A stretch of 64,000 bases of DNA from Escherichia coli. GTDB lineage: Bacteria; Pseudomonadota; Gammaproteobacteria; Enterobacterales; Enterobacteriaceae. Position numbers and translations under genes: made by a program. The notes beneath the pieces were generated by a model. That model did no database searches and was not told the DNA's origin. It was given only the letters and a program-made list of their open reading frames with translations. Positions within the stretch are counted from its first letter, which is position 1. Every line of letters begins with the position of its first letter. The DNA is taken from the NCBI RefSeq assembly GCF_002854065.1, contig NZ_CP024147.1; one strand, written 5' to 3'. Of the stretch, positions 10,536 through 56,708 are shown piece after piece.

Positions 10536-11327
10536 ATGCCTGAAGGCCCGGAGATCCGCCGTGCAGCGGATAACCTGGAGGCGGCGATCAAAGGCAAACC
10601 ACTAACTGATGTCTGGTTTGCCTTCCCGCAGTTAAAAACTTATCAATCACAACTTATCGGTCAACACGTTACCCATGTGGAAACGCGTGGTAAGGCGTTG
10701 TTAACTCATTTTTCCAACGACTTAACGCTCTACAGCCATAATCAGCTTTATGGCGTCTGGCGCGTGGTTGATACCGGCGAAGAGTCGCAGACCACGCGAG
10801 TATTGCGGGTAAAACTGCAAACGGCTGACAAAACCATTCTGCTTTATAGTGCCTCGGATATTGAGATGTTGACCCCGGAACAACTGACCACGCATCCGTT
10901 TTTACAACGCGTTGGTCCCGATGTGCTGGATCCGAATCTGACGCCGGAGGTGGTAAAGGAACGATTATTGTCGCCGCGCTTTCGTAACCGTCAGTTTGCT
11001 GGATTACTGCTCGATCAGGCGTTTCTGGCAGGACTTGGCAATTATTTGCGGGTGGAGATCCTCTGGCAGGTTGGGTTGACTGGAAATCATAAAGCGAAAG
11101 ACCTCAATGCGGCGCAACTGGATGCACTCGCACACGCGTTACTGGATATTCCTCGGTTTTCTTACGCTACGCGGGGGCAGGTGGATGAGAATAAGCATCA
11201 TGGGGCGCTGTTTCGCTTTAAGGTTTTTCATCGTGATGGCGAACTGTGCGAACGCTGTGGCGGCATCATTGAGAAAACCACGCTGTCATCTCGCCCGTTT
11301 TACTGGTGTCCGGGCTGCCAGCACTAG
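10536..11327 (+). CDS. nei: Endonuclease VIII (DNA glycosylase/AP lyase)
   Basis: 263-aa ORF; N-terminal MPEGPEIRR (Fpg/Nei catalytic Pro2-Glu3) and C-terminal zinc finger CxxC…CxxC. Confidence 0.95.
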
Positions 11328-54440: not shown

Positions 54441-54667
54441 AGGATGCTCCTGTTATGGTCGTTATGTCGGATAACCTCTTCCAACAGTGCATTTGCAGGT
54501 GAATATAAGACATTGGTTTAAGATTTCAGCCAGGCAAAGAAATCCAGCAGAGAATCTTGAAATAATTAACAAACAAAGGAGTTACAGTTAGAAATTGTAG
54601 GAGAGATCTCGTTTTTCGCGACAATCTGGCGTTTTTCTTGCTAATTCCAGGATTAATCCGTTCATAG

Positions 54668-54685
54668 TGTAAAACCCCGTTTACA
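54668..54685. promoter_or_regulatory. TyrR box upstream of aroG
   Basis: tgtaaaaccccgtttaca fits the TGTAAA-N6-TTTACA consensus. Confidence 0.7.
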
Positions 54686-54755
54686 CATTCTGACGGAAGA
54701 TATAGATTGGAAGTATTGCATTCACTAAGATAAGTATGGCAACACTGGAACAGAC

Positions 54756-55808
54756 ATGAATTATCAGAACGACGATTTACGCATCAAAGAAATCAAAGAG
54801 TTACTTCCTCCTGTCGCATTGCTGGAAAAATTCCCCGCTACTGAAAATGCCGCTAATACGGTTGCCCATGCCCGAAAAGCGATCCATAAAATCCTGAAAG
54901 GGAATGATGATCGCCTGTTAGTGGTGATTGGTCCGTGCTCAATTCATGATCCTGTAGCGGCTAAAGAGTACGCAACTCGCTTGTTGGCGCTGCGTGAAGA
55001 GCTGAAAGATGAGCTGGAAATCGTAATGCGCGTCTATTTTGAAAAGCCGCGCACCACGGTGGGCTGGAAAGGGCTGATTAACGATCCGCATATGGACAAT
55101 AGCTTCCAGATCAACGACGGTTTGCGTATTGCCCGTAAATTGCTGCTTGATATTAACGACAGCGGTCTGCCAGCGGCGGGTGAGTTTCTCGATATGATCA
55201 CCCCACAATATCTCGCTGACCTGATGAGCTGGGGCGCAATTGGCGCACGTACCACCGAATCGCAGGTGCACCGCGAACTGGCATCAGGGCTTTCTTGTCC
55301 GGTCGGCTTCAAAAATGGCACCGACGGTACGATTAAAGTGGCTATCGATGCCATTAATGCCGCCGGTGCGCCGCACTGCTTCCTGTCCGTAACGAAATGG
55401 GGGCATTCGGCGATTGTGAATACCAGCGGTAACGGTGATTGCCATATCATTCTGCGCGGCGGTAAAGAGCCTAACTACAGCGCGAAGCACGTTGCTGAAG
55501 TGAAAGAAGGGCTGAACAAAGCAGGCCTGCCAGCACAGATGATGATCGATTTCAGCCATGCTAACTCGTCAAAACAATTCAAAAAGCAGATGGATGTTTG
55601 TGCTGACGTTTGCCAGCAGATTGCCGGTGGCGAAAAGGCCATTATCGGTGTGATGGTGGAAAGTCATCTGGTTGAAGGCAATCAGAGCCTGGAGAGCGGG
55701 GAGCCGCTGGCCTATGGTAAGAGCATCACCGATGCCTGCATTGGCTGGGAAGATACCGATGCTCTGTTACGTCAACTGGCGAATGCAGTAAAAGCGCGTC
55801 GCGGGTAA
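54756..55808 (+). CDS. aroG: Phe-sensitive 3-deoxy-7-phosphoheptulonate (DAHP) synthase
   Basis: 350-aa ORF; N-terminus MNYQNDDLRIKEIKELLPPVALLEKFPATENAANTV. Confidence 0.97.
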   Translation: MNYQNDDLRIKEIKELLPPVALLEKFPATENAANTVAHARKAIHKILKGNDDRLLVVIGPCSIHDPVAAKEYATRLLALREELKDELEIVMRVYFEKPRTTVGWKGLINDPHMDNSFQINDGLRIARKLLLDINDSGLPAAGEFLDMITPQYLADLMSWGAIGARTTESQVHRELASGLSCPVGFKNGTDGTIKVAIDAINAAGAPHCFLSVTKWGHSAIVNTSGNGDCHIILRGGKEPNYSAKHVAEVKEGLNKAGLPAQMMIDFSHANSSKQFKKQMDVCADVCQQIAGGEKAIIGVMVESHLVEGNQSLESGEPLAYGKSITDACIGWEDTDALLRQLANAVKARRG

Positions 55809-55904: not shown

Positions 55905-55940
55905 AAAAAGCCGACTCACTTGCAGTCGGCTTTCTCATTT
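55905..55940. terminator. Bidirectional terminator between aroG and gpmA
   Basis: Hairpin agccgactcacttgcagtcggct flanked by A-run and T-run. Confidence 0.7.
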
Positions 55941-55955
55941 TTAAACGAATAACGT

Positions 55956-56708
55956 TTACTTCGCTTTACCCTGATTAGCAACCGCCGCTGCTTTCGCCGC
56001 GATCTCGTCAGCATTACCCAGATAATAGCGTTTCAGCGGTTTGAAATTCTCGTCGAACTCATACACCAGCGGCACGCCTGTCGGGATATTCAGCTCAAGA
56101 ATCTCTTCTTCGCTCATATTATCGAGATATTTCACCAACGCACGCAGAGAGTTACCGTGTGCAGCGATGATCACGCGCTCACCGCTCTTCATACGCGGCA
56201 GAATGGTTTCATTCCAGTAAGGGATCACGCGGTCAATGGTCAGCGCCAGGCTTTCCGTCAGCGGCAGCTCTTTCTCGCTCAGTTTCGCGTAACGCGGATC
56301 GTGACCCGGATAACGCTCATCATCTTTAGTCAGTTCCGGCGGAGTCACTGCAAAACCACGACGCCACTGTTTCACCTGCTCGTCGCCATACTTTTCAGCA
56401 GTTTCCGCTTTGTTCAGACCCTGCAACGCACCGTAGTGACGTTCGTTCAGTTTCCAGGATTTCTCTACGGGCAGCCATGCCTGATCCAGTTCGTCCAGCA
56501 CATTCCACAGGGTATGGATAGCGCGTTTCAGCACAGAGGTGTAAGCAAAGTCAAAGCTGTAACCTTCCTCTTTCAGCAGCTTACCTGCTGCTTTTGCTTC
56601 GCTTACGCCTTTCTCAGACAGATCCACGTCGTACCAACCGGTGAAACGGTTTTCTTTGTTCCACTGACTTTCGCCATGACGAACCAGAACCAGCTTAGTT
56701 ACAGCCAT
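55956..56708 (-). CDS. gpmA: 2,3-bisphosphoglycerate-dependent phosphoglycerate mutase
   Basis: 250 aa from [17 protein letters not shown] (RHG catalytic motif). Confidence 0.97.

Follow-up and report, generated by a model that had tools for sequence, protein, structure and literature searches.

The window analysed here (the whole stretch of Escherichia coli DNA, 64 kb in length) carries the aroG gene on its + strand and, divergent from it, ybgS (54440-54060, - strand), the two genes being separated by a common intergenic region of 315 bp. The aroG annotation is shared by 5425 E. coli genomes at this locus, and the aroG-ybgS arrangement is that of K-12, in which the neighbour divergent from aroG (b0754) is likewise ybgS (b0753). 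Between the two genes lies a palindrome composed of the hexamers TGTAAA and TTTACA, the downstream one of which coincides with a predicted -35 element. The features of the region are collected in the table below, together with the loci of other Enterobacterales in which the promoter occurs without the upstream hexamer.

Table. Features of the aroG locus in the window, and compared loci with the promoter but without the upstream TyrR half-site
Feature	Position	Strand	Basis and remarks
aroG CDS	54756..55808	+	ORF, 350 aa, Phe-sensitive DAHP synthase; aligns to K-12 b0754
TyrR box (strong; aroG operator)	54668..54685	.	TGTAAA and TTTACA around ACCCCG; direct reading of the letters
Full perfect palindrome	54667..54686	.	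7-nt arms, 6-nt non-palindromic centre; repeat search, 100% complementary
Predicted -35, TTTACA (right half of the TyrR box)	54680..54685	+	Promoter scan
Predicted -10, TAGATT	54703..54708	+	Promoter scan; invariant in 38/38, 0.95 identical across 81 sequences
Predicted transcription start zone	54714..54719	+	Inferred 6-9 nt downstream of the -10, plus conservation
Shine-Dalgarno region of aroG, CTGGAA	54745..54750	+	G-8 = 54748; conserved across compared loci
Terminator-like hairpin and T tract	55907..55933	+	10-bp stem, 5 GC pairs, tail CTCATTTTTA; consensus match only
Promoter without TyrR left half (Serratia, Yersinia, Hafnia, Proteus, Erwinia)	L039, L050, L052, L053, L057, L058, L060, L064, L069, L079, L080; ~80-100 nt before aroG		

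The 18 letters of the box, TGTAAAACCCCGTTTACA, match the TyrR consensus TGTAAA-N6-TTTACA at 12/12 positions, and repeat searching extends the pairing to arms of seven nucleotides (GTGTAAA at 54667-54673 and TTTACAC at 54680-54686) that stand 6 nt apart. The initial annotation had described the element as a near-perfect palindrome about 70 bp upstream of the aroG start. The palindrome itself was correctly recognized and its quality understated, the match being perfect; the distance also holds as a figure to the start codon, the box ending 71 nt before the ATG at 54756, although the distance of relevance is instead that to the promoter, with which the box overlaps at the -35. A strong TyrR box has been defined as one that agrees with the consensus at 10 or more of the 12 positions and has an invariant G and an invariant C with 14 bp in between (PMC4374768). 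The aroG element combines its full score with G54669 and C54684, between which 14 bp intervene; its right half forms the -35 of a predicted TTTACA-N17-TAGATT promoter, and its half-sites are better conserved than the neighbouring non-coding DNA, as detailed below.

The exact pattern is found only once in the 64-kb window and in none of 100 dinucleotide-preserving shuffles, and simple arithmetic gives a chance expectation of ~0.004 exact boxes per window (64000/4^12), or ~0.3 per 4.6-Mb genome. When up to two mismatches to the consensus are allowed, the window contains 2 sites against 2.19 expected, and the additional site (10699-10716) is hence at chance level. We also searched the ybgS-aroG intergenic region for a further, weak TyrR box of the kind that might allow cooperative or hexamer binding, and found none near the strong box. 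The sole other candidate with the G-N14-C arrangement in that region (54558-54575) scores only 7/12 and lies 110 bp upstream; it was rejected as a weak partner, and the aroG operator is for this reason treated as a single-box operator. A full-text literature search with the letters of the 18-mer themselves returned no match.

Comparison with the K-12 aroG promoter revealed that positions 54546-54770 of the window, a segment of 225 bp encompassing the box, the promoter and the start of b0754 aroG, are identical to K-12 MG1655. The K-12 aroG operator (aroGo) is thus the same box at the same gene; identity starts 210 bp before the ATG and continues into the coding sequence, with no promoter differences. 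The two strains are distinguished by 6 substitutions in the intergenic region, all of them in its ybgS-proximal part (54510 and 54535-54544), where they cluster near a promoter-like site on the - strand (54529-54502). Of 5426 complete E. coli genomes, 5425 match the 360 bp around the box at 95-100%, with the gene annotated as aroG every time; 5300 of these 5425 share the 71-bp promoter core (54650-54720) at an identity of 99% or more, and the remaining 125 fall below that level. In the E. coli species representative among the compared genomes (L002), the box lies 88 nt before aroG and its spacer reads ACGCCG rather than ACCCCG; the N6 spacer is therefore variable among E. coli strains, whereas neither half-site changes. 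The tyrR gene itself lies outside the 64-kb window; 5415 of 5426 complete E. coli genomes possess it, and on the basis of the species it is almost certainly present in the source genome as well.

The promoter scan predicts a single sigma-70-like site on the + strand upstream of aroG, with a 5/6 match at the -35 (TTTACA), a spacing of 17 bp, within the 16-18 bp range of sigma-70 promoters, and a 4/6 match at the -10 (TAGATT), for 9/12 positions overall. Because the right half-site is this -35 hexamer, bound TyrR would occlude the -35. An alternative promoter with a -10 element (TAAAAC) inside the box was also considered and rejected; the hexamer has no terminal T and no TG extension, and it is absent from the promoter scan. 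Judging from the position of the -10, transcription of aroG is predicted to start at about 54714-54717, which corresponds to K-12 785591-785594. The 5' end of aroG mRNA was reportedly mapped by Baseggio, Davies and Davidson in 1990 (J Bacteriol 172:2547), as the title of that work has it. Just past the -10, the motif ATTGC (54715-54719) is conserved in at least 90% of 38 Enterobacteriaceae sequences at 54715-54716 and is invariant at 54717-54719, a probable mark of the transcription start and of the initial transcribed sequence. Farther upstream, ~63-70 nt from the predicted start, 6 of the 7 positions of the motif TCCAGGA (54646-54652) reach at least 90% conservation in the same 38 sequences amid variable surroundings; the motif may represent an UP-like element or the site of another factor.

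Downstream of the promoter, the aroG leader is also a target of the small RNA GcvB. aroG has been reported to be repressed by both TyrR and GcvB, and pairing of GcvB was examined in 2025 with a G-8C mutation at aroG and a compensatory change in the GcvB seed R3 (PMC11878033). GcvB acting at the Shine-Dalgarno region represents a second, post-transcriptional layer of control in the aroG leader. At the level of the enzyme, AroG, which catalyses the first step in the synthesis of the aromatic amino acids, is feedback-inhibited by phenylalanine, a further layer alongside TyrR and GcvB control. At the other end of the gene, the terminator-like hairpin begins 99 nt past the aroG stop codon and plausibly corresponds to the 3' end of aroG mRNA that was mapped in 1990.

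To compare the box across Enterobacterales, we assembled the aroG loci of 80 species-representative genomes; the profile of all loci comprises 81 sequences. A profile built from box-bearing loci alone would be circular, and conservation was hence recalculated on all loci and on a main set of 38 Enterobacteriaceae sequences picked at 91% or higher identity of the AroG protein, independently of the box. A 12/12 box is present in 54 of the 80 loci, located 76-94 nt before the ATG (mostly 88) and enclosing many different N6 spacers, and the exact TTTACA-N17-TAGATT promoter accompanies it in 54/54 of these. In the main set, the left half, the right half and the -10 each show an identity of 1.00, compared to 0.76 for the N6 spacer, 0.66 for the upstream flank and 0.60 for the spacer between -35 and -10. 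Conservation is thus selective for the two half-sites and the -10, and the box holds a constant position relative to the promoter.

A different regulator might read the same DNA. The palindrome could additionally, or instead, be a site for CpxR~P, of the GTAAA-N5-GTAAA type, which would tie aroG to envelope stress. aroG is listed in the RegulonDB CpxR regulon (PMC7657598, Table 2) and is among the CpxR-regulated genes raised in silver stress (PMC13339815), and positions 54669-54683 (GTAAA and GTTTA around ACCCC) agree with the CpxR tandem at 8/10 positions. The arrangement there is GTAAA-N5-GTTTA, however, rather than the tandem that defines a CpxR box, and an 8/10 score is nearly uninformative in this window, where sites with at most two mismatches are common (70 against 48 expected). 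Furthermore, aroG was not recovered as a direct CpxR target by ChIP-exo (PMC7657598), and what is conserved is a pair of invariant arms in inverted rather than direct repetition. Taken together, these observations make a CpxR site at this position quite unlikely. The number of CpxR-like sites does exceed that of shuffled sequences throughout the window (70 versus 48 +/- 7, with 0/100 shuffles reaching 70), an excess that probably reflects codon usage or composition and not regulation. An exact GTAAA-N5-GTAAA match (GTAAAGCGAAGTAAA) occurs elsewhere, on the - strand at 55955-55969, at the gpmA 3' end in the convergent spacer between aroG and gpmA; arithmetic gives an expectation of ~0.12 such exact tandems per window.

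The box might also control the divergent ybgS instead of, or along with, aroG. It lies within the intergenic region common to both genes, TyrR is able to activate as well as to repress (PMC4374768), and the - strand promoter-like site at 54529-54502 offers a candidate ybgS promoter. Yet the centre of the box is separated by ~150 bp from that candidate, which lies downstream of it, and by 228 bp from the start of ybgS, far above the approximately three helical turns described for class I activation by TyrR (PMC4374768), whereas the register of the box with the aroG -10 is fixed in every box-bearing locus. The literature covered contained no report that TyrR controls ybgS, and we regard such control as very unlikely.

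In the profile of all 81 sequences, identity drops from 0.97 at the right half to 0.82 at the left half. The promoter is kept exactly in 12 loci, from Serratia, Yersinia, Hafnia, Proteus and Erwinia, in which the sequence at the left half-site position is unrelated. The promoter therefore works without the box, and promoter function alone cannot explain the conservation of the left half. Although the retention of the right half where the left one is missing, and these 12 boxless promoters, are what would be expected if the site were a mere -35 region of aroG whose upstream half is a chance or structural palindrome without a repressor role, such a reading is extremely unlikely in view of the invariance of the left half in 38/38 sequences whose flanks and spacer vary at 0.6-0.76, of the rarity of the exact box by chance (including its absence from all shuffles), and of the site mutations and TyrR-dependent repression that the available accounts of the operator describe (PMC4374768, PMC10949920). 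It follows that the left half owes its conservation to a constraint beyond RNA polymerase, as expected of a dimeric repressor site, and that the right half is under two constraints, from RNA polymerase and from TyrR.

We therefore conclude with high confidence that the palindrome is a single strong TyrR box, the operator of the E. coli aroG promoter, with phenylalanine and tryptophan as co-repressors. The site, its rarity, its identity with K-12, its geometry and the selective conservation of its half-sites come from the present analysis, and TyrR binding, the co-repressors and the effects of operator mutations from the literature. In its statement on aroG, which cites Baseggio 1990, PMC4374768 describes repression with phenylalanine and tryptophan through a consensus-perfect strong box over the -35. 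That paper is inconsistent in its placement of the box, which is at the -35 in its Introduction and at the "-10 element" in its Discussion, and the predicted geometry supports the former over the latter. Relief of TyrR-dependent and phenylalanine- or tryptophan-dependent repression by mutations in the box is credited to Baseggio 1990 in the passages concerned of PMC4374768 and PMC10949920, and the second of these presents that study as the RegulonDB curators' example of in vivo site-mutation evidence. We sought the coordinates of the aroG site in the supplements of the RegulonDB gold-standard paper and did not find them there. AroG also figures among TyrR regulon members said to come from genomic SELEX (PMC5791370). 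In one engineering study, a TyrR mutant in the helix-turn-helix showed no significant change in aroG mRNA, which agrees with the known weakness of the repression and is not positive evidence for it. The initial annotation had considered the site consistent with known TyrR repression of aroG, with comparison to the K-12 promoter and the conservation and positioning of the site as the checks, and on this point the K-12 identity, the conservation in fixed register and the literature (PMC4374768, PMC10949920) agree. The operator is accordingly an ordinary feature, already described in 1990 and curated in RegulonDB.

As a TyrR operator, the element would function through a TyrR dimer that reads the half-sites TGTAAA and TTTACA via its C-terminal helix-turn-helix, with phenylalanine or tryptophan, as bound co-repressor, strengthening the binding. 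TyrR and sigma-70 RNA polymerase would then compete, presumably through steric hindrance, for the same DNA at the -35, since aroGp uses the right half-site as its -35 hexamer. The predicted outcome is a modest, end-product-responsive drop in transcription of the major DAHP synthase when aromatics are plentiful.

Such an arrangement has counterparts among characterized TyrR targets. At the K-12 operator, the box likewise overlaps the -35, according to what PMC4374768 reports from the work it cites. The tyrP promoter resembles that of aroG in having a strong box over the -35 and repression by blocking of RNA polymerase (PMC4374768). The co-repressor at tyrP is tyrosine, in contrast with phenylalanine and tryptophan at aroG, and aroG has a single box. 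Repression of tyrP involves an adjacent weak box and hexamer formation. In Enterobacter cloacae, the akr-ipdC boxes follow the same TGTAAA-N6-TTTACA rule and the same strong and weak classes as at aroG (PMC4374768), but there a strong box upstream of the -35 activates ipdC and an atypically spaced weak box represses akr, whereas aroG has one perfect box that represses from the -35.

As a textbook operator mapped in 1990, the aroG box has little discovery value. It serves as a positive control, a functional transcription factor site recognized from raw sequence, and it is relevant to the metabolic engineering of aromatic compounds, where deletion of tyrR or replacement of the aroG promoter is routine.

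What is mildly new is confined to the lineage pattern among the 80 loci, in which the promoter is conserved and TyrR control, as judged from the box, occurs in Enterobacteriaceae and Rahnella and is missing from several other families. Rahnella (L044, L047) carries a perfect box, Chimaeribacter one of 11/12 and Pantoea sp. 1.19 one of 10/12. This distribution suggests that TyrR control of aroG has been gained or lost by lineage. A more specific scenario, which we put forward tentatively and consider possible but doubtful, is that the aroG core promoter predates its TyrR control and is also more widespread than it, the left half being an add-on fixed in Enterobacteriaceae and Rahnella and absent in Serratia, Yersinia, Hafnia, Proteus, Erwinia and Pantoea, such that a -35 equal to a TyrR half-site could be recruited or released as an operator through changes in the six upstream bases only. 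The comparison across genera thus illustrates how one hexamer may be subject to two constraints, as a -35 element and as a repressor half-site, and how TyrR control appears as a lineage-specific property of an otherwise conserved promoter.
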